A stretch of 64,000 nucleotides of DNA from Candidatus Pacearchaeota archaeon (GTDB lineage: Archaea > Nanobdellota > Nanobdellia > Pacearchaeales > JAPDKA01). Shown here in pieces: positions 1 through 47,277 of this stretch; the stretch's first letter is position 1; each line of letters begins with the position of its first letter. The notes below the pieces were generated by a model that did no database searches, was not told the DNA's origin, and saw only the letters and a program-made list of their open reading frames with translations. The position numbers were made by a program, and so were the translations under genes. Where the stretch lies: assembly GCA_038840695.1 (NCBI GenBank), contig JAWBVE010000001.1:108896-172895 (forward strand), read 5' to 3'.

Positions 1-117
1 ATCAAGCTTATGCGCTCTCTCGAGTTCAGCCTCTGTGGGTGCTGTGGCTGTAAGCACTTCTTTTGGCTTGCTATTTTTAAGTTTGCTATTTTTGAGCTTT
101 CTATTTTTTTGTTCCAT
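1..117 (-). CDS. hypothetical protein, N-terminal 39 codons only (continues off the left edge)
   Basis: ATG at 117 on the minus strand, open to position 1 (MEQKNRKLKNSKLKNSKPKEVLTATAPTEAELERAHKLD...). A TATA-like GATTTTAAATATT lies about 25-30 nt upstream on the minus strand. Too short to assign. Confidence 0.25.
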   Translation of the reverse strand, partial: MEQKNRKLKNSKLKNSKPKEVLTATAPTEAELERAHKLD

Positions 118-1008: not shown

Positions 1009-2235
1009 TTATTCATATCTTAATGCATCAACAGGATTGAGTTTTGCAGCATGTCTTGCAGGCATAATTCCAGAAATAATACCAACAAAAAAAGCAAATA
1101 AGAGCCCAAGCACAATTGCCTTAAAATCCAGAACAATTTTTAACATATAAAAGCCTGAGAGAATAGCAATGAATTCTATAAGCTTACTTCCGAATACCCC
1201 GATAACAATCCCTATTACACCTCCGACAAGACCAATGAGGCCAGATTCTATTATAAAAATTGTTAAAATATGATGATCTTTTGCACCAACAGCTTTCATA
1301 ATCCCTATTTGTTTTGTTCTTTCTAAGACACTAGTATACATCGTATTCATTATCCCTATGCCACCAACAACTAAAGAAATAGCTGCTATGCCCACAACAA
1401 CAAATTGAATTATAGCAATGATATTTGTGAAAACTTCAAGTAATTGTCTTGATGTTGTTACAGTAAATGTTTCTTCTCCTTCTTTTTCATTTCTTTCTTT
1501 TCTCAACTTTTCCCTTATTTTTTCAGCAACTTGTTCTAAATCTCTGCCTTCTTGCACTTCTACAAATATACTATCAATTCTTTCCCCAATACCATACACC
1601 TCTCGCAAACTCTCAACCGGAATAAAAATGCTTGCATCATGGCTCCTTTCTCCAGTCTTTTCCAAAGCCCCAACCACAACAAATTCTTTACCTTTTATCT
1701 TTATTTTATCCCTAATTTTAACTTTTCCAATTTTTTTATAAACCCCTTTTAGTAAATCATTGCCAATAAGCACTTCATATTTACTATCTAGTCTTAAATT
1801 CCTTCCTTCAACAATTTTGTATCCTCTCTCACCAAATATAAGATCAATATCTTCTGTAGAGAAACCATGAACAGTTGTGCCAAATTTTTCACCATTAATC
1901 TCAATCATATCAACTACCACCACTATCTCTAATGCTTTTTTAACTCCTGGAACTTTTTTAACAACTTCTAAATCATCCTTAGTTATCTCTTTTTCAGCAA
2001 AAAGTCCAGCAATAGGTAATGCAAATGCTTCTAATGATGGTCCCGGAGTTATAGACAGAGTATTAACCCCAAATCTTTCAAATTGCTCTTCTACAGATGC
2101 CTTTAATCCTTTACTAACAAGCATTAAAGCAACGATAGCAGCTACACCAATTATAATACCTAGGATTGTTAGCCAACTTCTCAATTTTCTAGCCTTCAAA
2201 TTGTTTAAGGAAAATAAAAATAATTTGCTTATCAT
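1009..2235 (-). CDS. ABC transporter permease, MacB/FtsX family
   Basis: 408 aa. N-terminal TM helix, large extracytoplasmic MacB-type core domain and a C-terminal FtsX-like three-TM bundle. Lies directly downstream of the matching ATPase gene. Confidence 0.8.
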   Translation of the reverse strand: MISKLFLFSLNNLKARKLRSWLTILGIIIGVAAIVALMLVSKGLKASVEEQFERFGVNTLSITPGPSLEAFALPIAGLFAEKEITKDDLEVVKKVPGVKKALEIVVVVDMIEINGEKFGTTVHGFSTEDIDLIFGERGYKIVEGRNLRLDSKYEVLIGNDLLKGVYKKIGKVKIRDKIKIKGKEFVVVGALEKTGERSHDASIFIPVESLREVYGIGERIDSIFVEVQEGRDLEQVAEKIREKLRKERNEKEGEETFTVTTSRQLLEVFTNIIAIIQFVVVGIAAISLVVGGIGIMNTMYTSVLERTKQIGIMKAVGAKDHHILTIFIIESGLIGLVGGVIGIVIGVFGSKLIEFIAILSGFYMLKIVLDFKAIVLGLLFAFFVGIISGIMPARHAAKLNPVDALRYE

Positions 2236-2263
2236 TTTTATTCTATTTGTTCATTTTATTCTT

Positions 2264-2995
2264 TCAGCTTTTTCTTCTATTTAGCTCCCATAAAAATTTT
2301 TTTGCCATTACATGATCTTTCATTACAGTTCCATCCCTTATGTTAAGAAATCTTTTTGCATAACTAGCTATTAAAGGATCGTGGGTAACTACAATTACTG
2401 TTTTGCCATGCTCTTTGTGTAGCCTAACTAAGATTTCCATTATTTGCTTTCCTGTATTGCTATCTAGGTTTCCTGTGGGCTCATCAGCAAGGATAATTTC
2501 CGGGTTATTTATTAATGCTCTAGCAATAGCAACTCTTTGTTGCTCGCCACCAGACATTTCAGTTGGTCTATGCTTCTCTCTCCCTTTTAAACCAACGAGT
2601 TCTAGTAATTTGATTGCCTTTTCCTTCGAATTATCTTTATTATCACTAAATAAGACAGGAAGATAGACATTTTCCAAAGCATTTAATTGAGGTATAAGAT
2701 TAAACTGTTGGAATATGAAACCGATTTTTTTGTTCCTTATTTCAGCAAGTTGATTAGAACTTAATTTTGTTACATCAACTCCATTAAAAAATAATTTACC
2801 TTTTGTCGGGACGTCGAGCAACCCTAGCAAATGCAAAAGCGTAGATTTACCAGAACCACTAGGACCGATTATAGCTATAAAATCTTTTTTTGCTATAGAA
2901 ATGCTTACATTGCGTAGGGCATAAACTTTGCTCTTCCCTAAAATATATATCTTCCACACATTTTCTAATCTTATCACTTCCTTACTTTCATTCAT
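2264..2995 (-). CDS. ABC transporter ATP-binding protein (MacB/LolD, COG1136 type)
   Basis: 243 aa. Walker A GPSGSGKST, signature MSGGEQQRVAIARAL, Walker B ILADEPTGNLD, H-loop VTHD. Overlaps the upstream gene by 4 nt. Confidence 0.9.
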   Translation of the reverse strand: MNESKEVIRLENVWKIYILGKSKVYALRNVSISIAKKDFIAIIGPSGSGKSTLLHLLGLLDVPTKGKLFFNGVDVTKLSSNQLAEIRNKKIGFIFQQFNLIPQLNALENVYLPVLFSDNKDNSKEKAIKLLELVGLKGREKHRPTEMSGGEQQRVAIARALINNPEIILADEPTGNLDSNTGKQIMEILVRLHKEHGKTVIVVTHDPLIASYAKRFLNIRDGTVMKDHVMAKKFLWELNRRKS

Positions 2996-4185
2996 CTCTT
3001 ATCAGTTTTCTTCCTTTTTTTATATCTGTAATAATATAAAGCACCAACTATGACGAGAATTAAAACAATAAAAGGCCAATAATTTGTTTTTGCTTCATTT
3101 CTTACCTTACTTTTATCTAAAGTAACGTTAACATAATCTTTGTATTGCTTGTTTAACATATCACTATAAGTTATTTCAAGAGGAATTATAACTTTGCTTT
3201 TTCTTAAGCTTGCATAAAAGCTTTCAATAGCATAATCATCAGAATCTAGATCACCAATATATATCTCTTGATTACCTTTAAGTTTAAAACCTTCACCATC
3301 TAAAATTTTAACATTAAAAAATTTCAAATCGGCATTTCCATTATTTACAAACTTTAACTTTATTTCACCTTTAGAAGCTATCGCATCGACAATAACATAA
3401 TATTTAGGGTCTTCATTTATTTTTATACTTGCAAAAGTACTAAAAGCTTGCTTGTTTCCGCTTGAGTCAGTATAATTTATCGTTAAAGGTATTTTATATA
3501 TTCCTTGCTTAGCATTAGGCAATGTTAAAATATCAAAGATAACATCTGAAACCTGGCCCTTAGTTATGCTCTTGATTTTCTTTATTGTTGTTCCTTTAGC
3601 AGGAACTATAGGAGTATCAGTAATGTCTATTTCAACAAGAACATCATTAATTATATTTTCTGCATTATTTGAAATGCTTACCACTAGTTTTCCTTGCTGC
3701 CCTATTCCTAAGATATCTGGTTCTGTTTTTATATCAATCACATTTACTATTGCATACCTTTGTTGAATTCTGATTGGTATTTCTTTCACTATCCAAGCAT
3801 CTTTTTTAGGATTATCTGTACATTGCAATTTTAAATTCTCAAGCCCTTCAATAGCATTTTCGTCTACTTTAATATAAAAATCAATAAGGAATTCACGACC
3901 ACCGGCAAGCCTACCAATCGATTTTTCACTTTCACTATATGCGGAGAATGGAAACTTACTAACAATCTTACATGTTACATTTTCAGCCACCTCACTCCCA
4001 ACATTTTTAACAAGAAACCATATTCGGAACTTTTCTCCAGGCTCGACAGGAAATGGCTCATATTTTAAAGTTTTTATATCGACGCTGGCAATATTTTTTG
4101 CATAATTGATCGGGAAATTTTCTTCATAAGCATAAGCAAAGCTAATAATAATAAAGAATACAAAAGCCAAAAAAGCCTTTTTCAT
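2992..4185 (-). CDS. secreted, C-terminally anchored beta-rich protein (COG1361/CARDB-like) coupled to the ABC transporter
   Basis: The ORF runs to 4254, but the internal Met at 4185 starts a signal-like MKKAFLAFVFFIIISFAYA. C-terminal TM WPFIVLILVIVGALYYY plus a basic tail. The 4-nt overlap with the ATPase gene suggests one operon. Confidence 0.5.
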   Translation of the reverse strand: MKKAFLAFVFFIIISFAYAYEENFPINYAKNIASVDIKTLKYEPFPVEPGEKFRIWFLVKNVGSEVAENVTCKIVSKFPFSAYSESEKSIGRLAGGREFLIDFYIKVDENAIEGLENLKLQCTDNPKKDAWIVKEIPIRIQQRYAIVNVIDIKTEPDILGIGQQGKLVVSISNNAENIINDVLVEIDITDTPIVPAKGTTIKKIKSITKGQVSDVIFDILTLPNAKQGIYKIPLTINYTDSSGNKQAFSTFASIKINEDPKYYVIVDAIASKGEIKLKFVNNGNADLKFFNVKILDGEGFKLKGNQEIYIGDLDSDDYAIESFYASLRKSKVIIPLEITYSDMLNKQYKDYVNVTLDKSKVRNEAKTNYWPFIVLILVIVGALYYYRYKKRKKTDKR

Positions 4186-4500
4186 TTTTATCCTATTTTT
4201 CCATTTTTCTGCTTTACCTCTTTTATTTTGTAATAAAAAATTACAAAAGAACAATTTAAAAAAGTTTTCTATAGAAAATTTTTGGCATTATTTGGCATTA
4301 TTTTGGCACAAGATAAATGAAAAATTCTTGTTGTTTTGAAGATTTGCCCTTTAATTGTGAAGCAATTAAGCCTCTCATCTCATGTCCATTCTTTGATGCC
4401 CAATTTGCGACATTCTTAGCAATTTCAAAACATTTTCCGAAGGGGGACTTATATATAAATCTTTCCCCCTAAAGGAAACTAGCACTATTAGGCGCAAATG

Positions 4501-4515
4501 AAAAACTTTATAAAT
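4501..4515 (+). promoter_or_regulatory. BRE/TATA-like promoter (AAAAACTTTATAAAT)
   Basis: The TATA core TTTATAAA (4507..4514) is centred about 26 nt upstream of the ATG at 4537. This implies a leaderless or near-leaderless mRNA. Confidence 0.45.
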
Positions 4516-4536
4516 TCATAGTCACTCAAAAGTAGT

Positions 4537-5769
4537 ATGGCAAAATCTCGAAGCTATGGCTATGACCTTGAAGCACGCATAGCCCAAGCACTGCGAGAGT
4601 GTGGGCTAGGAGAAAAAGAAATTAAGCAAGTTGCAGGCAAAATTAAAACTTATGTTGAATTTATCGGTCCTCTTAAAGCAGATTCTTCCTTTTGGAATTT
4701 TAGAAGCAAATTAGAAAAAGTAGTTGAGGCTTTTTCTGATGAAGACCTAACATATGACGAATACCTTCAAGCCGCACTTGAGCAGCCACAGCTATTTTAC
4801 CAATCTCCAGACACAATCGAATCCAACATCAGAGACCTAGTTAGAAGATTCGAACCAGAAGGACTTACAGTTAAAGCTTATCTTAAAGCCGCACTTGAGA
4901 AGCCACAGCTATTTTGCCAATCTCCAGACACAATCGAATTCAACATCAGAGATCTAGTTAGAAGATTCGAACCAGAAGGACTTACAGTTAAAGCTTATCT
5001 TCAAGCCGCACTTGAGCAGCCACAGCTATTTTACCGATCTCCAGACACAATCGAATTCAACATCAGAGATCTAGTTAGAAGATTCGAACCAGAAGGACTT
5101 ACAACTAAACCTTATCTTAAAGCCGCACTTAAGCGGCCACAGCTATTTTACCGATCTCCGGACACAATCGAATTCAACATCAGAGACCTAGTTAGAAGAT
5201 TCGAACCAGAAGGACTTACAACTAAACCTTATCTTAAAGCCGCACTTAAGCGGCCACAGCTATTTTGCCTATCTCCAGACACAATCGAATCCAACATCAG
5301 AAATCTAGTTAGAAGATTCGAACCAGAAGGACTTACAACTAAAGCTTATCTTAAAGCCGCACTTAAGCAGCCACAGCTATTTTGCCAATCTCCAGACACA
5401 ATAGAGCAACATATTCACTTTGTGCAAGAACTTGAGAAAAGAGGAGTTATAAAAATTCCTAGCAAATATGGCTCAGTTCTAGAATGGTTACTTGCAAACC
5501 CAAAATATATGGCTTATGGCAGTGATCATTACAGACTAAAATTTTATTATGCAAAATTACTTGATAAACCGGCTGCGCTAAAAAATCTTAAAATGCCGAA
5601 GAAAAAAGTTATCTCTGAACTTGAGCAAGCTTTTGGGAGCATACACAGAGTGGAAAAAGGGAAAACCCTAATAGATTTTGAGAAATTGCATTCATTATAT
5701 ATAGAAAAATATAACAAGAGCCCTGCAGAAGGAGCATATCATGCTTATCTGTGGAATGAAAACACATAA
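4537..5769 (+). CDS. tandem 39-aa repeat protein, mTERF-like helical repeats (putative nucleic-acid binder)
   Basis: 410 aa. About six consecutive repeats of EGLTxKxYLxAALxxPQLFxxSPDTIExNIRxLVRRFEP, flanked by unique N- and C-terminal regions that contain degenerate copies of the same motif. Confidence 0.6.
   Translation: MAKSRSYGYDLEARIAQALRECGLGEKEIKQVAGKIKTYVEFIGPLKADSSFWNFRSKLEKVVEAFSDEDLTYDEYLQAALEQPQLFYQSPDTIESNIRDLVRRFEPEGLTVKAYLKAALEKPQLFCQSPDTIEFNIRDLVRRFEPEGLTVKAYLQAALEQPQLFYRSPDTIEFNIRDLVRRFEPEGLTTKPYLKAALKRPQLFYRSPDTIEFNIRDLVRRFEPEGLTTKPYLKAALKRPQLFCLSPDTIESNIRNLVRRFEPEGLTTKAYLKAALKQPQLFCQSPDTIEQHIHFVQELEKRGVIKIPSKYGSVLEWLLANPKYMAYGSDHYRLKFYYAKLLDKPAALKNLKMPKKKVISELEQAFGSIHRVEKGKTLIDFEKLHSLYIEKYNKSPAEGAYHAYLWNENT
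4741..5400 (+). repeat. 117-bp tandem repeat, about 5.6 copies, inside the CDS
   Basis: Units start at 4741, 4858, 4975, 5092, 5209 and 5326. Neighbouring units differ by only 4-8 nt. Confidence 0.95.
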
Positions 5770-5859
5770 AAAAAATTAGAAAAGTTTCAGTGCGAAAGCC
5801 TGTGCTATGTGCAGAGTAGCAGGGCCACGCGAGCTAAATGCAGGAATAAGAGATTGGCA

Positions 5860-5873
5860 AGATTTTTAAAAAC
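5860..5873 (+). promoter_or_regulatory. TATA-like promoter upstream of thrS
   Basis: AGATTTTTAAAAAC is centred about 24 nt upstream of the ATG at 5891. Confidence 0.4.
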
Positions 5874-5890
5874 TAAATTCATGCTTTTTC

Positions 5891-7825
5891 ATGAGGGCAT
5901 TATTTTTGCATTGCAATAGCCTTTATTTTAAGCCTTTGACTAAAGCTATTGCAAGCGCAGAGCCAATAGAGGAAAAGTTAAAAAAAGAGGGTGAGAAGGT
6001 TAAGGAAGCGCTTGTTGCATTTGTCGCTATCGAAGCTGGAGATGATGAAAGTTGTGTTGAGCAGCTTATCGATGAAATAATAAAGGTTGGGAAGCAAGTT
6101 AAGGCGAAGTGTTATGTTGTTTATCCTTATGTTCATCTCAGCTCAAATCCGTCAAGGCCTGAGCTGGCTTTGCAACTTTTGAAAAGTATTGAGGCAGGGC
6201 TAAAGAAAAAAAAGCTAAAAGTTGTGAGGGCACCTTTTGGCTGGTATAAAGAGTTTGATATTAATGTTAAGGGCCATCCTCTTTCAGAGCTAAGCAGGGA
6301 GATAAAGCCTAAGATAAAGCCGAGAGAGGAGAAAATTAGAGCAGAGGAGAAGGCTGGGGAGAAAGAGGAAATAAGCAAGGCGCTTGAGGCAGAGAAAAAA
6401 GCAAGCAGTGATTGGTTTATCCTTGATTTAGATGGAAATTTACATAGGATAAAGTTGAAGGGTGAAGAGCTTGTTGGTTTTGATTTTGCTGGCTATGAAA
6501 AGCTTGAGAAGTTTGCAAGATATGAAATGAAAAAAATAAGAGCAGTTCAACAAGAGCCACCACATGTTAAATATATGCGTGCTCTTGAGCTTGTTGATTA
6601 TGAAAGCGCAAGTGATCCTGGCCACTTTAGATTTTATCCTAAGGGAAGACTAATCAAAGCCTTGCTTGAGCAATATGTAACAAGTCAAATGCAAGAATAT
6701 GGTGCTCTCGAAGTTGAGACACCAATTATGTATGACTTCGAGCATCCAGCTTTGAAAGCTTATCTCCATAAGTTTCCTGCAAGGCAATATGCTATCATAA
6801 CACCAAACAAAAAGGTCTTTCTGAGATTTGCTGCATGCTTTGGCCAATTCATTATGGCAAGCCATATGGGTATAAGCTATAAGGACTTGCCGCTAAAACT
6901 CTATGAGCTAACTAGATATAGCTTTAGAGTTGAGCAAAGAGGAGAGCTTGTAGGTTTAAGGCGCTTACGAGCTTTTACAATGCCTGATTGTCATGCATTA
7001 TGCAAGGATCTTGAGCAAGCAAAAGAAGAAATGAGAATAAGGTTTGCACTAGCTAAAAAAATTTTGAGTGAAATTGGTTTTGATGTAAGCAAGGATTTTG
7101 AGCTTGGGATTAGACTTACAAAGGATTTCTGGGAAAGCAATGCTGATTTTGTTAAAGAACTTGTTAGAGCTTTTGGAAAGCCTGCATTGATTGAGATGTG
7201 GTCTTCTCAGTATTTTTACTTTATCTTAAAATATGAGCTCAATTTTGTTGATGCTCTAGATAAAGCCTCCGCTCTGGCCACAGATCAAATTGATACAGGA
7301 AATGCCAAAAACTATGGCATAACTTTTATTGATAGCGATAATAAAAAGAAATATCCAATCATATTGCATTTCTCGCCGAGTGGGAGTTTAGAGCGAGTAA
7401 TGTATGCTTTGCTTGAGAAAGCTTATATGGATGAAAAGCTAGGCCAAAAGCCGAGCCTCCCTTTCTGGCTTGCTCCAATACAGGCAAGGCTAATTCCTGT
7501 TAGCGAAAAATATGTTGAAGAAGCTATAGATATAGCGAATGACTTAAATGTCCATTCAGAGCTTAGAGTTGATGTTGATGATCGCGATTTGCATGTAAGT
7601 AAAAAAATTCTAGAAGCTGAAAAAGAGTGGATACCTTATATTATTGTTATAGGCAAAAAAGAACTTGAAAATGGCATTTTTACTGTTAGAATAAGAAAGA
7701 GCGGAGAAATAAAAGAGCTCAAGCCCAGCGAGTTTAGAGAGATAGTGAAGAAGGAGCAAGGCAAAATGCCTTTCAGGCCTCTTCCGCTTCCGATGCTCCT
7801 AAGCAAGAGACCAAACTTTGTATGA
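5891..7825 (+). CDS. thrS: threonyl-tRNA synthetase, archaeal type with N-terminal editing domain
   Basis: 644 aa. N-terminus MRALFLHCNSLYFKP resembles the archaeal ThrRS editing domain. Class II core (FRVEQRGELVGLRRLRAFTMPD) and a C-terminal anticodon-binding region (APIQARLIPVSEKY). A K/E-rich linker joins the domains. Confidence 0.9.
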   Translation: MRALFLHCNSLYFKPLTKAIASAEPIEEKLKKEGEKVKEALVAFVAIEAGDDESCVEQLIDEIIKVGKQVKAKCYVVYPYVHLSSNPSRPELALQLLKSIEAGLKKKKLKVVRAPFGWYKEFDINVKGHPLSELSREIKPKIKPREEKIRAEEKAGEKEEISKALEAEKKASSDWFILDLDGNLHRIKLKGEELVGFDFAGYEKLEKFARYEMKKIRAVQQEPPHVKYMRALELVDYESASDPGHFRFYPKGRLIKALLEQYVTSQMQEYGALEVETPIMYDFEHPALKAYLHKFPARQYAIITPNKKVFLRFAACFGQFIMASHMGISYKDLPLKLYELTRYSFRVEQRGELVGLRRLRAFTMPDCHALCKDLEQAKEEMRIRFALAKKILSEIGFDVSKDFELGIRLTKDFWESNADFVKELVRAFGKPALIEMWSSQYFYFILKYELNFVDALDKASALATDQIDTGNAKNYGITFIDSDNKKKYPIILHFSPSGSLERVMYALLEKAYMDEKLGQKPSLPFWLAPIQARLIPVSEKYVEEAIDIANDLNVHSELRVDVDDRDLHVSKKILEAEKEWIPYIIVIGKKELENGIFTVRIRKSGEIKELKPSEFREIVKKEQGKMPFRPLPLPMLLSKRPNFV

Positions 7826-7844
7826 TTCAAACTTTACATGATTT

Positions 7845-8321
7845 ATGATAAAAGAAAAATTTAATGAACTAAAGAAAAGCCAGGTATTTAAAAGAAAAGC
7901 TTTAAGTAATAGCTTGGGGCATCTTTTTCTTGTCTTTTGCATAACTGACTCAAGCTTCCAGCTAGAACAAATTGATTTTAGTTTTGGTAAACTTGATAGA
8001 AGAGGAAAATTTAATATAAAGTGTTTTTCACTTAAAGAAGGAAAGTGGCATTATAAAGAAAGCATCGAAGAAAAGCATTTCTTGCCGTTAAAGTTAGGCA
8101 AAGTAAAAGATGCGAAAGCTCTATTGCCAAAATTAAAGGAATTATGTGATAAGAGCGGAAAATTCATCTTTATTTTAATGAATGAAGATGGCAAGGAGAT
8201 ATATAGCATAACATGCCTTTCAGATTTTTTTATACACAAGCTTAAATTTGATGCAAAAAGCTTAGAATTACTTGATAAAAAGCAATACAGTATCTCAGAG
8301 CTTTTCATAATCAAAAAATAA
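7845..8321 (+). CDS. hypothetical protein
   Basis: 158-aa ORF beginning 20 nt after thrS. No recognisable motifs. Confidence 0.4.
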   Translation: MIKEKFNELKKSQVFKRKALSNSLGHLFLVFCITDSSFQLEQIDFSFGKLDRRGKFNIKCFSLKEGKWHYKESIEEKHFLPLKLGKVKDAKALLPKLKELCDKSGKFIFILMNEDGKEIYSITCLSDFFIHKLKFDAKSLELLDKKQYSISELFIIKK

Positions 8322-8378
8322 CATCAAAAGCTATTAATAAAATCAAAAAAAATTAAAACTCTTAAGTTATTATTTTTT

Positions 8379-9425
8379 ATGATCCCTAGGAAGATTGGGG
8401 TTATATTTAATCCAAGAGCAAGATTGGCGAGAGAGGGCAAAATAACAAGGCAGAAACTTGAACAAATTATGGCTAGAGCAAGTCATGATTATTCTGGCAG
8501 CTCCGGCAGCTTTGATTATATCATAAGAAATATTAACTTTGGGAATGCTGATGATATTTATATGAAATTACAGGAATTTAAAAATAAAGATATAAACATC
8601 GTTGCGATTGCTGGAGGCGATGGCACTTTGCACAGAACAATAAGTCAAATTATTAGTTACCAAGAAATTGAGGACTACCCAAAGTATATCTCGATTTTAA
8701 AATCAGGCACACAAAATATCATAGCAAAAGCATTTGGTTTTGGTGATGCTTACTCTACACTCGAAGCTCTTGTTAAACCTGAAAATGAACTAGAAGTAAT
8801 CGATGCTTTAACTCTTGAAATAAAAAAACTTAAAGAATGGGAGGAAGAACAAGAGGCAAGAGCTATATATGGTTTTAATTTGTCAGGATTAGCAATTGCT
8901 AATTTTATATTAAAATATCAGGACAAAAATGTTAAAGCATTTTTTATTAAAAAACCGTCAAAGGCTAAGATGTGGGCGTTGATATTAAAAGGAATTGTTT
9001 CAGGCATTTTAAATACAACTCTTTATAATGAAATTACAAAGCCAGCTAGATGTTCAATAATTCTTGATGATAAGGCTTTTATCGAGCTTTTGTATAATAT
9101 CTTTGTAATAGGTTCTATTCCTGTGAGGATTGCCGGATTTAACATATTCGATGAGGCCAAAATAAGGGATGAAAATAAAATTGCTGTGATTTGTGGCTAT
9201 GGAGGCATGAAAGATGTTTTTAAAGCGTGGCTTGGAAATTTTAAGTTTGGTGGACTTTATTATAAATATGTAAAAAAAGTTATGATAGAAGCAAAAGAGC
9301 CTTTATATTATGCTATTGATGGTGAGATTTACCACTTAAGTAATAATCAAAAGCTTCTCGCTAAACCAGGCAAAAAAATAAAAATAATCAGACCAAAATT
9401 GAGCAAACCGGAACAGCAAAACTAA
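8379..9425 (+). CDS. DAGK_cat-family lipid kinase-like protein
   Basis: 348 aa. Starts with IGVIFNPRA and carries the AIAGGDGTLHR motif typical of the diacylglycerol/sphingosine/NAD-kinase catalytic fold. Confidence 0.6.
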   Translation: MIPRKIGVIFNPRARLAREGKITRQKLEQIMARASHDYSGSSGSFDYIIRNINFGNADDIYMKLQEFKNKDINIVAIAGGDGTLHRTISQIISYQEIEDYPKYISILKSGTQNIIAKAFGFGDAYSTLEALVKPENELEVIDALTLEIKKLKEWEEEQEARAIYGFNLSGLAIANFILKYQDKNVKAFFIKKPSKAKMWALILKGIVSGILNTTLYNEITKPARCSIILDDKAFIELLYNIFVIGSIPVRIAGFNIFDEAKIRDENKIAVICGYGGMKDVFKAWLGNFKFGGLYYKYVKKVMIEAKEPLYYAIDGEIYHLSNNQKLLAKPGKKIKIIRPKLSKPEQQN

Positions 9426-28018: not shown

Positions 28019-28714
28019 ATGATCGAAACAAAGAAAACGAGTGAAGAGAAAAAGGAAAAAGAAATAAAAGAAAAAGAAATAAAAGAAGAAAGAAAAAAAG
28101 AAAGAAAAAAAGAAGCAAAAGAAGAAAAAGAAGCAAAAGAAGAGAAGAAGGAAAAAGAAGAAGGGAAGGAGAAAGAGAAAGAAGTGGGAAAAAAGAAAGA
28201 GAAGAAAGAAGAGGAAGAAAAGAAAGAAGAAAAGGAAAAAGAGAAAGAAGGAGGAAGAAAGAAAGAGGAAGGGGAAAAAGAAAAGGAAAAACCACAAAAG
28301 TCTAAAAAAGAATTTGTTGTGGCTAGAGCTTATGACTTGCCTATCTCGAGAAAAGCTGCTGTTGCTATTTGTGATGTGATTAGAGGTAAAAGCCCTTATG
28401 ATGCAATCAAGCTTCTTGAAAAAGTAATTGAAAAAAAGCTAGCAATACCAATGCTAGGAGAGATCGGGCATAGGAAAAGAGGGCATAGGCTAGGAAAAAT
28501 TGCAAGTGGCAGATATCCTGAAAAAGCAGCAAAATTTTTTATCAAAGTTTTAAGGCAAGCAATTGCAAATTCAAGACAAGCTGGCTTTGATGATACTAAA
28601 ATATATTTAAGTGTTGCAAAAGCTGATAAAGGCTCAACGCAATATCATCCAAGTAGGTTTTATGGCAGAAGATTTAAAAGAACTCATCTCTATTTTGAAA
28701 TAAGAGAAAAATAA
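28019..28714 (+). CDS. rpl22: 50S ribosomal protein uL22 with an N-terminal K/E-rich extension of about 95 aa
   Basis: 231 aa. The core begins near ARAYDLPISRKAAVAICDVIRGK. The first ~95 residues are almost pure K/E and are encoded by a polypurine tract. Confidence 0.9.
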   Translation: MIETKKTSEEKKEKEIKEKEIKEERKKERKKEAKEEKEAKEEKKEKEEGKEKEKEVGKKKEKKEEEEKKEEKEKEKEGGRKKEEGEKEKEKPQKSKKEFVVARAYDLPISRKAAVAICDVIRGKSPYDAIKLLEKVIEKKLAIPMLGEIGHRKRGHRLGKIASGRYPEKAAKFFIKVLRQAIANSRQAGFDDTKIYLSVAKADKGSTQYHPSRFYGRRFKRTHLYFEIREK

Positions 28715-29990: not shown

Positions 29991-30275
29991 AGTGAGAGGA
30001 AAGGATAGGAAGGAATAGAAAAAGAAAGGGAAGGAGAAAGGGAAAGGAAGAGAAGGGGAAGAGAAAGGGAAATGATAGAAAGAGAAAGGAAGAGATAGAA
30101 TAAGAAAGGAAAGGAAGGGAGAGGAAGAGAAAGGGGAAGGAGGAAGGGAGAGGATAGGAAAGGAAAAGATAGAAAGAGAAAGAAACGAGAAGGGAGAGAA
30201 AGAGAAAAGGGGAAGGGAAAGGAAGAGAAGGGAAGAGAAAGGAAAGGATGAGTGAAATAAGAGGAGGATGATAAA
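29991..30275 (+). repeat. 285-nt non-coding polypurine (G/A) tract
   Basis: Almost exclusively G and A on the + strand, with a single C and scattered T. Stops occur in all + frames. The minus-strand 'ORFs' here are low-complexity artefacts. Confidence 0.9.
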
Positions 30276-42108: not shown

Positions 42109-45100
42109 ATGCAAAAAAAGAGTGCCATCTTATTAATTTTTCTTGTTTTGATATGCCTAGCTTTGCTACTCATTATAGCTGTTAAAAAATCAGAAATTAC
42201 TGGGCTTGCTATTTATTTAAGCAAGCCGAGCTATGCAAGTAATGAGAGACTGAGTGGAAGCTACGAGTTAAGCTTAAGAGAAGGCGAGCTTATTCCTCTT
42301 GATAGCATTGCCTTAATCCAACTTGCAGATCAGCAAAGAAACTTGACTCTTGAAGAATGGCTCGAGCTAAGCAATGCTAGCTATCCTCTTGGCTTCGGAA
42401 GCTTTTATCTTGAAAATAAAAGCCTGAGCGGAGAAGGCATGGGTCTTGGCAGGCCAGGAAAGCTTATTGAGAAGCCTAGCATAAGCTTCAAGCTAAAAAT
42501 TTTTGAAATAAGCCAAAGCCAAGCTAGTAACGAGAGTGAAGAGAAAGACACATTCAGTACATTCAGCGTAGGCAACATAGGGAACATAGGGGGCGCCTCA
42601 GTCTTCAACCCTATAAATCCACTTAGCTTTCTTTATTTTATTTCGGCCTTAAAATCACTTCTTGGCTTTACAATTGCAGAGCAACTTGAGGCAAGCGTAA
42701 GCGCTGACAAGCCTTTTATTTATGAAATACCGCCTGGCTATGACGCTGAGATTATCGAAGAAAGTATAAACATAGATGGCAGCCCAGCAAGCATAGAACT
42801 TTTACAAATAAGCAAGCAAGGCAGCATTTTAACAATAAAAACAAATTACACAATAGAAAAAATTGGCTTTGGCCCAGAGTTTCTTGGTGAGGCCTATACA
42901 ATACCACTGAGCCTTGATGTGCTCAATCTGCAGGCACAAGATGGAACTCTTGAAATAAAGCTTGTTTATGCTAATGAAACCTTGTTCTATGATCAAGAGC
43001 AAATCACAACACAAGCAACCGCTGCTCCAGCCCAGATCCAAGAATTCCAAATCCAACAAACTTGCTACTGCGACTCATGCAGTAATTGCACAGCCCAGCT
43101 CAATAATCCTCTCTGCAGTGAAGTTCTGCTTACTGCTGACATAACAAATTTTGCAGGCACATGCATTGATAATCCTGAAAACTTCAGCAACAAAGTTTTT
43201 GATTGCCAAGGACATACAATAGATGGTGATGATAATGGAACAGATTATGGAATCTATTTAAGCGAAAAAACAAACAACACAATAAAAAACTGCATAGTTA
43301 CTGACTTTTATTTTGGAATTTATTTCTATAATTCGTCAAACAACACCCTGGCAAACAATATTGCCAATTCAAATTATTACTTTGGGATTTATTTATATTC
43401 TTCCTCAAATAACACTTTAATAAATAACACTGCCAATTCAAATAAAGGGGACCTTTCTTATATAGGTAGTGGAATTCTTTTATCCTATTCCTCAAACAAT
43501 ACTTTAATAAACAACAATGCTAGTTTAAATAATAACTTTGGAATTGATTTATCCTATTCCTCAAACAATACTCTAATAAACAACACTGCAAGCTCAAATA
43601 GTAATGGAATTTATTTAGATTCTTCATCAAACAACACCCTGACAAACAACACTGCAAGCTCAAATAGCGAGGACGGAATCTATTTAGGCTCTTCTAGCAA
43701 TAATAATCTAATATCCAACACTGCAAACTCAAATGGTGGGAGTGGGATTTATCTAGGTTATTCTTCAAGTGATAATATTGTAACAAATAATATAGCAAAT
43801 AATAACTCTCGAGGAATAAATGTCTGTGGTGCAGTCAATTCAACAATAGCAAATAACACAATGCAAGAAAATGTTTATGTTGATTTGGAAGAATGTAGCA
43901 TAGGCGGAGAAAATTGCCTAAACAACATATTTGAAAATAACACTTGTTCTGGTGATAGGCTTTGTGGGGTTTATAACTATCCTGTAAACTTAGTAAATCA
44001 AGAATTTTCAGATCTTATAATGTGTAATGCCACAGGTTCAAATATAACAAATGTAACTGTAAAAGGTTCGGAAACACTATTTAATAATGCAGTTAGAATA
44101 TTTTTCTCAGATAATTTGTTAATACAAAACCTAACTTCTTCTGGGAATGCGATAGGCATAGCATTAGTTGGTTCAAACAATATAACAATAATTAATAGTA
44201 CAGCCAATTATAACAATGGTGGTTTCCCATTTGGCTTGGTAATATTTGGTGGCGGTAATCATACAATTAATAATAGTGAGTTTAATTTCAATGGAGCAGG
44301 GATTAGGTTGTTAACTTCAAGCAACATTTTAACAAACAATACTGCAAATTCAAATATGTATGGAATTTATTTATCTTCTTCCTCAAGCAATATCTTAATA
44401 AACAACACAGCCCGAAATAACTCTGACTGGGATTTCTATTCAGAAAGTGATTCAATAGGCAATATAATAACAAATCTAAACATAGGCCCAATCGTAAGCT
44501 TTGAGGGCAAGGACATAGCATTAAGAAATGCAAGTGCTCCTGCGGCCGATCCTGCTGGATGGTATAATATTAGTAAATATGTAAATGCAACAAACAACAG
44601 CGCTGACTCGTGGCTTTTCTTGAATATAAGCTATGATGAAAGCGAGATAGACTCAGTTAGCGAGGCCAGCTTGCGCATTTGGAAGTATAATGACTCATGG
44701 TATAATGAGGGCTTCTATACTATTAATGGCGTTGATACTACAAACAATGTTGTTTATGCAAACATAACAAGCTTTAGCATATTTGCGCCGCTTGGAATTC
44801 CTCCTTGTTACTGTGACTCATGCAGCAATTGCACAGCCCAGCTCAATGATCCTGCCTGCAGTGAAGTTCTGCTTACTGCAGATATAACAAATTTTGCAGG
44901 CACTTGCATTAATAATCCTGAAAACTTCAGCAACAAAATCTTTGATTGTCAAGGACATAAAATAGATGGCGATGATAGTGGAGCTGATCATGGAATTGAT
45001 TTAAGCGGAAAGACAAACAATACAATAAAAAATTGTGTGATTACAGACTTTTTTGAGGGAATTTATTTATATGGCGTGTCAAATAGCATTTTTACAAATA

Positions 45101-47277
45101 ACACAGTTAATTCAAATAATTTGGCGGGAATTTATTTAGGTTACTTCTCAAGCAATAATACTTTAATAAATAACATTGTTAATTCAAATACTTATGGAAT
45201 TGATGTAGTTGTGTGGTCAAACAACAACATCCTGACAAACAACACTGCAAGCTCAAATGATTATGGAATTATATTGCTTGCTTCATCAAACAACATTTTA
45301 ACGAGAAATATAATAAAGAATTCAACTTATTATGACCTATATGTTGATAATTCCTCAGCCAATAACTCCATCTTTTTAAATAATTTCCTTTCTAAAGGCA
45401 TTAAAGATGAGCTATATAGCTTTGACGAAGCTATTTCGAATTATACTATTTCCTACTCGCCGATGCACTTTAATGGAGAGGACTTTTATGAAGAAATTTA
45501 TGCTATTCCTGCCGTTGGTTGTTATAATATAACTGCAGATGGACAGATTGTGAATGTTGATGGAGTAACGAATATAGACTTAATTTTAGTTAATGACAGT
45601 GCCAATCCTGCCTGTGGATGGGCTCCTGGCGGCTTGCGTGAGGTTTTTTGCCAGGGCTGTTATGGCCTTGGCATTACTAATTGTAGCATACTCGAGGCAT
45701 TGCTTGGCTTGAATCCTGGAGATTGTCGCTATTTTAAGGCAAGCGCTTTTGTGGCTGGTGGCTATGGTAGCAATTATACTTGGAATGATAGCTTCAATGA
45801 TAGCTATTATGTAATTCCTGGCTATACAACACCACCTTACTTAAACTTTAGCATTATTGGAACAACAAATGAGAGCTATAATGGCACAAATATATATTGT
45901 GTAAATAACAGTGGAAATTGGTATGATGAAAATGCTAGGCCTTTGAAGCTGGTTGATTGTGGCAAAGCCAATGTTATTTCAATTAGCATTTCTGGCTACA
46001 TTGTTAATCTTGCATTTGTTGGCCAAGACTCAGCATTAAGCCCTGTCTACTATGATCTTTTCCTAGTTAATGCATCTAATCTATCTAATCAGAGCTTTTT
46101 GATGAATACAACATCAACATCATTAAGCATTGATCTTAGCGGCTATTCTGCGGGAACTTATAAAATTAAGATAGTTCCTTTTGTTCTTGGTTCAAGATAT
46201 AATGGAACAATCATTTATAGTGAGCCATTTACTTTGGCTCCAGCTCAGCCTCCCCCACCTACGCCCCCACCTACGCCAACACCAAATCATGCACCAGAAA
46301 TAATAGCTTATAAACCAGAAGATTTGAGCATAGCTATTCAAGAAAATGATAGCCTAGTCTTTTATGCTAAGGCAAGAGATGCTGATAATGACAGCCTAAT
46401 AATGAAATTTTATCTTAATGACAATGAAGTAAATGAATGTCAAGATGTTGGGGAGGTAGAATGTGGCTTTAATTTCAAAGAGGCGAGTGGTAGTTACAGC
46501 ATTAAAGCAGAAGTAAGTGATGGCGAAGCAAGTAATAGGGTTGAGTGGCAAGTAACAGTTATTAAATGCATCGACGAGTGGAACTGTAGTGAGTGGGGAC
46601 CTTGCATTAATGGAACAATGGAAAGGAGATGTGTTAAAGTTAATCCTGAATGTCCTAGCGAGGAGCATAAGCCAAGCGAAAGCCAAGCCTGTGTCGTGCC
46701 AATAGAAAAATGCGTTCTTGCATATTGTGAAAATTGGTCTGAATGTAAGCTTGAAAGGGCTAGCTGGAAAGAGCTTCTTGCAGGAAAAATAACCTATTAT
46801 GGCAAGCAAAAGAGAATTTGTTATTGCAAGGATGGTAGAAATTATAGTGAAGAGCAAGATTGTGTAGTTTATAAAGAGTTAAAAGTTGAGAAGGGCTTTG
46901 AATGTGGGGTTGTGCACTATTATGTCAAGGATAAGGCAACAAATAAAATACTAGCCAAAATAAAGATGCCATCATTTGAGAAAGGCCTTGATATTCACTT
47001 TGTGATAAAAGAGAGTGAACTTGGCTATTGCTGGTATTGCTTTGATGGCAAACAAGATTATGATGAAACTGGCATTGATTGTGGCGGGCCTTGCAAGCCT
47101 TGTGTGGAAAAACCAGCAGTTCCGGCTAAAGCTAAGAAATTCAACTATCTTCCTGTAATAATAATCAGCATTCTTTTTGTATCTGGGTTGGCTTGGCTAA
47201 CCTTAAAATTGTTAAAAAAGAGAGAAATAGTAGCTATGAAACGCAAATTAAAAGAAATGAGCATTTTTAGGAAATAA
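42109..47277 (+). CDS. giant surface protein: two NosD/PbH1-type beta-helix modules, Ig/cadherin-like domain, Cys-rich modules, C-terminal TM anchor
   Basis: 1722 aa. Signal/TM at the N-terminus. Repeated NNTLxNNTANSNxxGIYL beta-helix turns. Duplicated cap CYCDSCSNCTAQLN..CSEVLLTADITNFAGTCI at codons 319 and 900. C-terminal TM plus basic tail. Very dense in N-x-S/T sequons. Confidence 0.8.
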   Translation: MQKKSAILLIFLVLICLALLLIIAVKKSEITGLAIYLSKPSYASNERLSGSYELSLREGELIPLDSIALIQLADQQRNLTLEEWLELSNASYPLGFGSFYLENKSLSGEGMGLGRPGKLIEKPSISFKLKIFEISQSQASNESEEKDTFSTFSVGNIGNIGGASVFNPINPLSFLYFISALKSLLGFTIAEQLEASVSADKPFIYEIPPGYDAEIIEESINIDGSPASIELLQISKQGSILTIKTNYTIEKIGFGPEFLGEAYTIPLSLDVLNLQAQDGTLEIKLVYANETLFYDQEQITTQATAAPAQIQEFQIQQTCYCDSCSNCTAQLNNPLCSEVLLTADITNFAGTCIDNPENFSNKVFDCQGHTIDGDDNGTDYGIYLSEKTNNTIKNCIVTDFYFGIYFYNSSNNTLANNIANSNYYFGIYLYSSSNNTLINNTANSNKGDLSYIGSGILLSYSSNNTLINNNASLNNNFGIDLSYSSNNTLINNTASSNSNGIYLDSSSNNTLTNNTASSNSEDGIYLGSSSNNNLISNTANSNGGSGIYLGYSSSDNIVTNNIANNNSRGINVCGAVNSTIANNTMQENVYVDLEECSIGGENCLNNIFENNTCSGDRLCGVYNYPVNLVNQEFSDLIMCNATGSNITNVTVKGSETLFNNAVRIFFSDNLLIQNLTSSGNAIGIALVGSNNITIINSTANYNNGGFPFGLVIFGGGNHTINNSEFNFNGAGIRLLTSSNILTNNTANSNMYGIYLSSSSSNILINNTARNNSDWDFYSESDSIGNIITNLNIGPIVSFEGKDIALRNASAPAADPAGWYNISKYVNATNNSADSWLFLNISYDESEIDSVSEASLRIWKYNDSWYNEGFYTINGVDTTNNVVYANITSFSIFAPLGIPPCYCDSCSNCTAQLNDPACSEVLLTADITNFAGTCINNPENFSNKIFDCQGHKIDGDDSGADHGIDLSGKTNNTIKNCVITDFFEGIYLYGVSNSIFTNNTVNSNNLAGIYLGYFSSNNTLINNIVNSNTYGIDVVVWSNNNILTNNTASSNDYGIILLASSNNILTRNIIKNSTYYDLYVDNSSANNSIFLNNFLSKGIKDELYSFDEAISNYTISYSPMHFNGEDFYEEIYAIPAVGCYNITADGQIVNVDGVTNIDLILVNDSANPACGWAPGGLREVFCQGCYGLGITNCSILEALLGLNPGDCRYFKASAFVAGGYGSNYTWNDSFNDSYYVIPGYTTPPYLNFSIIGTTNESYNGTNIYCVNNSGNWYDENARPLKLVDCGKANVISISISGYIVNLAFVGQDSALSPVYYDLFLVNASNLSNQSFLMNTTSTSLSIDLSGYSAGTYKIKIVPFVLGSRYNGTIIYSEPFTLAPAQPPPPTPPPTPTPNHAPEIIAYKPEDLSIAIQENDSLVFYAKARDADNDSLIMKFYLNDNEVNECQDVGEVECGFNFKEASGSYSIKAEVSDGEASNRVEWQVTVIKCIDEWNCSEWGPCINGTMERRCVKVNPECPSEEHKPSESQACVVPIEKCVLAYCENWSECKLERASWKELLAGKITYYGKQKRICYCKDGRNYSEEQDCVVYKELKVEKGFECGVVHYYVKDKATNKILAKIKMPSFEKGLDIHFVIKESELGYCWYCFDGKQDYDETGIDCGGPCKPCVEKPAVPAKAKKFNYLPVIIISILFVSGLAWLTLKLLKKREIVAMKRKLKEMSIFRK

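Follow-up and report, generated by a model that had tools for sequence, protein, structure and literature searches.

Identification of a predicted mTERF-type repeat protein in an archaeal genome

In a 64,000-nucleotide stretch of a metagenome-assembled genome (MAG) of Candidatus Pacearchaeota (GenBank assembly GCA_038840695.1, contig JAWBVE010000001.1, positions 108,896 to 172,895; hereafter the window), a complete open reading frame (ORF) at positions 4537-5769 on the plus strand encodes a protein of 410 amino acids (pI 8.96) with six tandem units of 39 residues. Judged at the levels of sequence and predicted fold, this protein belongs to the mTERF superfamily, of which it is an archaeal representative. 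With moderate confidence, we propose that it would form an mTERF superhelix that binds double-stranded DNA sequence-selectively as a regulator or roadblock, that the residues varying between units would set its specificity, and that the array would be remodelled by recombination.

The Pfam mTERF family (PF02536) matched residues 134-314 of the window protein with 24.7 bits, above the gathering cutoff of 23.1 (E=1.3e-5). Since repeats can inflate such scores, relatives of the protein were tested separately, and 20 of 40 relatives matched the same family at E<=1e-3 (best E, 5e-12), the longer ones scoring 53-85 bits (maximum 84.6 bits, E=8e-24). A sequence search of the Protein Data Bank (PDB), with the protein as well as with the family profile, gave MTERF1 in first place but with E values of only about 0.2-1, and for this reason a fold comparison was required to settle the assignment. 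The AlphaFold2 model of the window protein, built from a 40-sequence alignment (pLDDT 94.4, pTM 0.88), consists in its repeat part of all-helical units, each with a helix of 10 residues at unit positions 5-14, a short helix of 4-5 residues at 16-20 (P16-Q-L-F-C20) and a helix of 14 residues at 23-36. After comparison of this model with PDB structures by Foldseek, the top 18 matches were all mTERF proteins, with TM scores up to 0.65-0.68 when normalised to the target. The first rank was held by human MTERF1-DNA complexes (E=2e-6, target-normalised TM 0.63-0.65, about 329 aligned columns), and the lower matches were MTERF3, MTERF4 in mitoribosome assembly intermediates, and the mitoribosomal mTERFs of Tetrahymena, Chlamydomonas and Polytomella. 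In the canonical mTERF motif (Roberti et al. 2009, quoted in PMC11417379), position 8 is a proline and positions 11, 18 and 25 are hydrophobic, and this signature falls on P16, F19, I26 and L33 of the unit. In a set of 547 units from 115 proteins of the family, from which five close Pacearchaeota sequences were left out, the respective positions were occupied by P in 501, F in 486, I/V/L in 521 and V/L/I in 437 units.

The original prediction, made from the letters of the DNA, had guessed an mTERF-type helical solenoid, and this guess is supported by the Pfam match above cutoff, the Foldseek matches to mTERF proteins and the three-helix units of the model. The likeness that it had also drawn to TALE, PUF and PPR proteins did not hold at the level of family models, no match to Pfam TAL_effector, PUF or PPR being found at E<=10, and neither PUF nor PPR folds were present among the Foldseek matches in PDB. 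A search of the window protein against NCBIfam gave no meaningful match, and no relatives of it were found in a viral structure library. Its assignment to an archaeon agrees with the closest relatives, which are from Candidatus Pacearchaeota, with a paralogue located beside archaeal 16S and 23S rRNA genes, and with the archaeal editing domain of the neighbouring threonyl-tRNA synthetase (ThrRS).

Organization of the repeat array

The gene starts with an N-terminal helical cap domain (amino acids 1-68, nucleotides 4537-4740), which is kept across the family and contains helices at residues 7-20, 26-43 and 55-65 in the AlphaFold2 model. Six in-frame units of 39 codons follow, all on the plus strand, at 4741-4857, 4858-4974, 4975-5091, 5092-5208, 5209-5325 and 5326-5442, with starts as originally reported. 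Unit 1 (EDLTYDEY...) is the most diverged full unit, mainly at its start; the DNA of unit 5 is identical with unit 2 of a mosaic gene from a related genome (locus L001, described below); and the terminal unit 6 is repeat-like over codons 1-27 and continues with EQHIHFVQELEKR from codon 28 (nucleotide 5407) into the C-terminal domain (5443-5769, plus strand). This last domain, also conserved family-wide, carries a degenerate mTERF-like motif (VLEWLLANPKYM...HYRLKFYYAKLL) followed by helices and a beta-hairpin, as read from the family consensus and from the model, in which a helix at 314-341, a beta element at 370-379 and a helix at 381-406 were predicted. Tandem Repeats Finder recorded the array at 4765-5402 with a period of 117 bp, 5.5 copies, 95% matches, 0% indels and a score of 1094, and no ORF of at least 60 amino acids was found over the array in the other frames.

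Recounting of the nucleotide differences gave 4 between units 2 and 3, all 4 nonsynonymous, and 8 between units 3 and 4, affecting 5 codons nonsynonymously and 2 synonymously, both as counted before. Between units 4 and 5 the recount yielded 6 differences instead of the 7 formerly claimed, and the single synonymous change claimed for this pair was found beside 4 nonsynonymous codons. The amino-acid variation in window units 2-6 is limited, as predicted, to positions 5, 7, 10, 14, 15, 20, 21, 28 and 32; in the paralogous copy, positions 17 and 24 vary as well. The mean unit-to-unit identity within the window protein is 0.83, which places it among the highest tenth of family members (median 0.57), and near-identical units are not peculiar to the Pacearchaeota lineage.

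Variable positions and their relation to the DNA-reading residues of MTERF1

The eleven positions variable in Pacearchaeota were examined in the 547 units of the wider family. Their family entropy is 2.80 bits versus 1.87 bits for the other positions (Mann-Whitney p=0.006), and they also mismatch more between units of one and the same protein (p=0.0005), the highest within-protein mismatch being that of position 20 (0.77), followed by positions 17 (0.73) and 28 (0.70). The restriction of variation to fixed positions, noted originally within a single gene, therefore extends to orthologues, paralogues and the wider family, in all of which the same positions are the most variable. Positions 7, 10 and 14 (i, i+3 and i+7 of helix A) and positions 24, 28 and 32 (i, i+4 and i+8 of helix B) probably form exposed stripes, because they lie opposite conserved hydrophobic positions.

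For comparison with MTERF1, the numbering was anchored on the R162A and F243A mutant chains, R202, R251, R350 and R387 were checked to be arginines, and the conserved proline of each motif was equated with P16 of the unit. The residues of MTERF1 used for direct readout are R162, R202, R251, R350 and R387, and the conserved mTERF prolines cap the central helix beside the DNA (PMC4705650). The 'RFY' structure 3MVB is, by its PDB title, MTERF1 mutated at R162, F243 and Y288. By this mapping of direct-readout and base-flipping residues, R162 stands at P-2, corresponding to unit position 14; R202, F243 and R350 at P+1, unit position 17; F322 at P+4, unit position 20; and R251 at P+9, unit position ~25. 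The hypervariable segment of the unit (positions 14-21 and 24) thus appears, by alignment and model, to be the segment with which MTERF1 reads DNA. Of the idea that a few residues per unit encode specificity, the part that stands is that several variable positions align with readout residues of MTERF1, but the small alphabet expected of a TALE-like system is absent. Covarying 'code' pairs were also sought at the DNA-proximal positions and rejected, the strongest covariation being found instead in helix B and the linker, at 27/31 and 38/39, where it is probably structural.

Substitution pattern among the units

By the pairwise method of Nei and Gojobori, the ratio of nonsynonymous to synonymous rates (dN/dS) was 1.85 for window units 2-5 and 0.80 for all 12 distinct full units from five genes, and about 0.15-0.4 in the N- and C-terminal domains of the same five genes. 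Between the window gene and the copy at locus L002, the N-terminal domain differs by 3 synonymous and 4 nonsynonymous changes over 44 synonymous and 160 nonsynonymous sites (ratio about 0.36), and the C-terminal domain by 8 synonymous and 5 nonsynonymous changes over 62 and 253 sites, respectively (ratio about 0.15-0.2). As pairwise dN/dS counts are not independent, minimal events were counted as well, and gave for the internal units 19 nonsynonymous and 9 synonymous events, or 68% nonsynonymous, against 76% expected under random mutation. Compared with 18:18 in the non-repeat domains, this 19:9 ratio is not significantly different (Fisher p=0.12). The nonsynonymous excess that had been taken as a sign of diversifying selection is accordingly compatible with neutrality. 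The 19 nonsynonymous events are, on the other hand, clustered in 11 of the 39 codons (p=0.005), and position 15 was hit five times, with K, Q, R, E, W and H as the residues seen. The units thus combine a strictly conserved scaffold with a few positions evolving at or above the neutral rate, and diversifying selection at these positions is plausible.

Paralogous copies, unit number and mosaic genes

The gene is present in four related Pacearchaeota MAGs; all genomes compared here are metagenome assemblies. Assembly GCA_038818895.1 carries two loci, L012 with a six-unit gene and L002 with a four-unit copy on a second contig, and the L012 contig is 100.000% identical to window positions 1537-8769 over 7,233 bp, including the six-unit array. 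On the basis of flanking genes, two copies can be distinguished. Copy A lies divergent from ABC-transporter and surface-protein genes and is followed in the same direction by ThrRS, and has 6 units in the window, 6 in L012 and 2 in L003. Copy B lies divergent from an isoleucyl-tRNA synthetase (IleRS) gene and a 23S-tRNA-16S operon and is followed by a PRC-barrel gene, and has 4 units in both L002 and L004. The two copies are alike only in the coding sequence (about 94% identity) and in 35-43 bp upstream. A mixed-strain bin was considered as the source of the two copies and judged less likely; because none of the flanking genes of copy B occurs within the 64-kb window, we favour the view that copies A and B are two paralogues in one genome.

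The gene at locus L001 (6001-6882) is a mosaic, of which the first 369 nucleotides and the upstream flank match copy B (L002) and the last 609 nucleotides together with 6.6 kb downstream match copy A of the window at 99.9%. The junction is at the boundary of units 1 and 2, leaving 3 units. Within the window array, the units pair the states of positions 20 and 28 in all four possible ways. The differences in unit number and the mosaic fit in-register unequal recombination and gene conversion; concerted evolution, as proposed earlier, and recombination among units agree with the variation in copy number and with the mosaic make-up of units. De Bruijn assemblers are prone to collapse or cross-join 117-bp units of about 95% identity and two copies of about 94% identity, and the unit-number differences and the L001 mosaic could reflect either real recombination or short-read assembly effects, such as a chimera inside the array.

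The same data allow an explanation in which no adaptive 'code' is involved, constraint being relaxed at the surface, biallelic sites being spread by gene conversion and the copy-number differences and mosaic being assembly artefacts. The event ratio, indistinguishable from the random expectation, speaks for this explanation, most of the variable sites are biallelic single-nucleotide changes recombined into mosaics, and metagenome assemblies with repeats and close copies invite collapse or cross-joining. It accounts less well for the clustering of nonsynonymous events with five at position 15, for the high variability of the same positions in distant relatives with old and diverged arrays, for pairwise dN/dS values of 0.8-1.85 in the units versus 0.15-0.4 in the flanking domains, and for the identity of the six-unit array in the second deposited assembly. 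We regard it as possible but on the unlikely side.

Size and distribution of the family

A word-indexed search gave 184 relatives, and genome loci were scanned with a two-unit alignment. When 1.84 billion cluster representatives were searched exhaustively with the family profile, 955 matched at E<=1e-3, of which 688 reached E<=1e-10. The family is a small one; the large eukaryotic mTERF families were not retrieved by the family profile among these 955 matches. The family-wide layout is an N-terminal cap, 2-12 tandem units and a C-terminal cap. The spacing of units is exactly 39 amino acids in 394 of 486 family spacings. Lineage-specific periods are 36 amino acids in a Melainabacteria subset, in the Nanohalarchaeota member (L060) and in several bacteria of the candidate phyla radiation (CPR), 36-38 in Micavibrio (L055), and 40, 43 or 45 in single lineages; among these sub-variants, which range from 36 to 45 amino acids, none with 35 was seen. 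The proteins are basic, with a family median pI of 8.9. Some relatives are annotated with a helix-turn-helix (HTH) of XRE or sigma-70 region 4 type, and the domains fused in long relatives gave no functional clue beyond such HTH-like matches and one FG-GAP protein.

Members were found in the DPANN archaea (Pacearchaeota, Aenigmatarchaeota and Nanohalarchaeota), in the cyanobacterial relatives Melainabacteria/Gastranaerophilales, often with several copies per genome, in Planctomycetota (many MAGs and Planctomicrobium), in Alphaproteobacteria (Micavibrio, Rickettsiales, Rhodomicrobium and further MAGs), in CPR bacteria (Saccharibacteria, Minisyncoccia and Moraniibacteriota), and in Pseudobdellovibrionaceae, Blastocatellia and single MAGs of Clostridia and Muribaculaceae. 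Several genomes hold two or more copies, some of them in tandem (L025, L040 and L055). This patchy taxonomic spread suggests horizontal transfer of the family.

The list of carriers raises the question of a protein-protein scaffold or a delivered effector, whose variable surface would follow changes in a host or partner protein in an arms race between symbiont and host. Host-dependent or predatory organisms (DPANN, Saccharibacteria and other CPR, Micavibrio, Pseudobdellovibrionaceae and Rickettsiales) are over-represented among the carriers, unit number and surface residues shift fast between close strains, and one member, with a TrwC relaxase on one side and an integrase on the other, appears to be carried by a mobile element. 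The family is, however, also common in Planctomycetota and gut Melainabacteria, inspection of the sequence by eye, with no predictor run, revealed no obvious signal-peptide-like hydrophobic N-terminus, and a nucleic-acid ligand is favoured by the fold, by the basic pI and by the way in which variable positions align with the DNA contacts of MTERF1. A scaffold or effector role seems improbable to us.

Proposed function

In the mechanism that we propose, the N-terminal cap, the six three-helix units of 39 residues and the C-terminal cap would together form an mTERF-type superhelix, built on a scaffold of the invariant residues G2, L3, Y8, A11, P16, L18, F19, P23, T25, N29 and F37. This superhelix would bind nucleic acid, most probably double-stranded DNA along its groove and in a sequence-selective manner, and would act as a transcriptional regulator or roadblock. 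The variable positions 14, 15, 17, 20, 21 and 24, which surround the proline-capped short helix, would point towards the nucleic acid and determine the specificity, and in-register unequal recombination and gene conversion, both among units and between copies A and B, would change the array. Binding to double-stranded DNA is favoured because of the structural match with MTERF1-DNA complexes, the mapping of positions, the basic charge and the DNA binding of pTERF1 and pTERF2 (PMC11417379). Nucleic-acid binding itself, the choice of DNA rather than RNA, the reading residues and the regulatory role are all what we infer from these comparisons.

A number of observations weigh against this proposal. 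Among eukaryotic mTERFs, many have RNA or ribosomes, not DNA, as their target. The placement of variable residues towards the groove depends on a weak alignment with MTERF1 (phmmer E about 0.25) together with the fold match; position 14 is glutamate in units 1-3, where the family has K or R; and the net charge per unit is near zero. Positive selection, first read from the dN/dS of 1.85, had to be downgraded after the event counts. A TALE-like restricted alphabet at positions 17 and 20 was rejected, since 86 distinct residue pairs were found there, although Q, S or P occupies position 17 and Y, C, S, T or A occupies position 20 in about 81% of units each. Neighbouring genes are not conserved from one family member to another, and the context gives no functional support.

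Copy B bears on a different ligand. In three MAGs (L001, L002 and L004) it is divergent from the 16S-tRNA-23S operon (operon at 1258-5726 on the minus strand, gene at 6001), about 275 bp separating its start codon from the 16S 5' end. The protein might be an RNA-binding or ribosome-biogenesis factor like MTERF3, MTERF4 or plant mTERFs, with rRNA or another structured RNA as its target. In line with this are also the flanking translation genes ThrRS and IleRS, and the Foldseek matches to MTERF3, to the MTERF4 mitoribosome intermediates and to mitoribosomal mTERFs. The best structural matches are, however, the MTERF1-DNA complexes, and the only prokaryotic relatives tested by experiment bind double-stranded DNA (PMC11417379). 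As a family-wide functional link, the rRNA adjacency was rejected: it holds for copy B in three MAGs, but no rRNA was found within 5 kb of any other of more than 60 family loci examined, nor are there rRNA genes in the 64-kb window. Furthermore, rRNA operons are frequent sites of contig-joining artefacts, and the adjacency of copy B may be incidental. We therefore consider an RNA-binding role unlikely, and retain sequence-selective binding of double-stranded DNA as the preferred reading.

Comparison with known repeat proteins

Like MTERF1 (3MVA, 3N6S and 5CKY), MTERF3 (3M66) and MTERF4 (4FP9), the window protein is predicted to stack the same three-helix motif in a superhelix; it also shares with the eukaryotic mTERFs the proline capping the short central helix and the hydrophobic heptad pattern, and the variable positions of its family coincide with the base-reading positions P-2, P+1 and P+4 of MTERF1. 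It differs in that eukaryotic mTERFs are nuclear-encoded and organelle-targeted whereas the window protein is encoded in an archaeal MAG, and in that their motifs of about 33 amino acids are interspersed and highly diverged whereas the window units are exact 39-residue tandem repeats of up to 90% identity. Its sequence identity to MTERF1 is only 14-17%.

Prokaryotic mTERF-like tandem-repeat proteins that bind DNA were described as pTERF (Hu et al. 2024, Nucleic Acids Res 52:10464, PMC11417379), with pTERF1 being MBQ3414883.1. Specific DNA motifs are bound by both pTERF1 and pTERF2 with Kd values in the nanomolar range, that of pTERF1 for the motif ACTNNNAGTC being 1.87 nM, and different repeat arrangements were proposed to give different DNA specificities (PMC11417379). 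The pTERF and the window family are both prokaryotic, come mostly from MAGs, and consist of mTERF-like units of three helices in strict tandem, the number of which varies (3-11 in pTERF, 2-12 here). As judged from the published description, the two are set apart by period (35 amino acids in pTERF, cluster TR_35_C32, versus mostly 39), by taxa (only Bacteria, mostly Bacillota, versus DPANN, Melainabacteria, Planctomycetota, Alphaproteobacteria and CPR) and by signature, pTERF1 being reported without the canonical proline and hydrophobic residues that the window family keeps. The pTERF screen covered periods of 15-35 amino acids only and the word 'archaea' is absent from the paper (PMC11417379); the 39-residue family was outside that screen because it stopped at periods of 35. 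In the literature that we searched, nothing was found that links mTERF to archaea, to DPANN or to the bacterial lineages of the family. Altogether, sequence and model point to a distinct and more canonical tandem mTERF-like family, probably related to pTERF and now with archaeal members in Pacearchaeota, Aenigmatarchaeota and Nanohalarchaeota.

With TALE-like proteins (AvrBs3, BAT, MOrTL and STAR) the window protein shares near-identical helical units of 33-39 amino acids that start with 'LT' and vary at few positions, and probably a copy number altered by recombination. The TALE repeat has, however, two helices instead of the three of the mTERF motif, and its repeat-variable diresidue (RVD) consists of two residues with a small alphabet, while the window family has no such RVD. 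To our knowledge, no rule of one base per repeat exists for mTERF proteins.

The mTERFs were long regarded as having arisen in eukaryotes and as being specific to organelles. Relatives in prokaryotes were first reported only in 2024, and the window locus would extend mTERF-like proteins to Archaea. The family offers a tractable system for the origins of mTERF and for reprogramming of a scaffold by a few residues per unit: its units are near-identical, alleles with 2-6 units occur naturally, there are two paralogues to a genome, and the variable positions coincide with the base-reading positions of MTERF1. For the biology of DPANN, the protein is of note as a candidate regulator from a tiny, symbiotic-type archaeon whose genome is very small; one of the two gene copies adjoins the rRNA promoter region. 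A more far-reaching reading is that the protein would be a programmable reader in which positions 14, 15, 17, 20 and 21 of each unit specify a step of the target, and that the family would represent the prokaryotic stock of organellar mTERFs, acquired by DPANN through transfer and re-tuned by recombination. The canonical signature is retained in the family, whose carriers include Alphaproteobacteria and Melainabacteria, the latter being the sister group of cyanobacteria; Alphaproteobacteria are related to mitochondria and the cyanobacterial lineage to plastids. This reading is speculative, and we hold it to be quite unlikely.

Upstream region and gene neighbourhood

The upstream segment common to both copies (4494-4536, plus strand) contains the TATA-like box TTTATAAA at 4507-4514, about 26 bp before the ATG, and this arrangement suggests an archaeal promoter with a leaderless mRNA. 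A scan for promoters and terminators of bacterial type gave nothing, bacterial models being unsuited to an archaeon. Further upstream, an inverted repeat GGGGGA...TCCCCC around TATATATAAA is located at 4443-4470, about 70 bp before the start codon; it precedes copy A both in the window and in L003, and is absent in front of copy B. Three direct copies of TTTGGCA, spaced by 10-11 bp or about one helical turn, are located at 4283-4308 between the mTERF-like gene and a divergent surface-protein gene (2992-4254, minus strand), and could be the binding site of a regulator.

Among other members of the family, that of an aenigmatarchaeote has transcription factor B (TFB) in its neighbourhood, and alphaproteobacterial members form a tandem pair after a flagellar cluster. 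The Planctomicrobium member (L008, 5019-10461) lies between a gene for a TrwC-type relaxase/helicase and a phage-type integrase with AlpA, which suggests that it is carried on an integrative mobile element.

Other features in the window

Short tandem repeats of GCAATGTTAGCAA type at window positions 66-108 and 246-277 flank a tRNA gene (173-244), and TAGCAA/TTGCT motifs like these repeats occur between the 5' end of 16S and copy B (about 5900-5960 in L001 and L002); repeats of this type may be an element common to stable-RNA genes. The protein encoded at 28019-28714 (plus strand), which we take from inspection of its translation by eye to resemble ribosomal protein uL22 in its C-terminal two-thirds, has an N-terminal low-complexity extension of about 95 amino acids rich in Lys and Glu, encoded by AG-rich tandem repeats at 28043-28292, and a second AG-rich tract is located at 29997-30249. 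A predicted surface protein of 1722 amino acids is encoded at 42109-47277 (plus strand), and carries repeats of 23 amino acids (69 bp), NNTLxNNTAxSN..GIYL, at 43308-43734, which by their sequence look like those of a parallel beta-helix.

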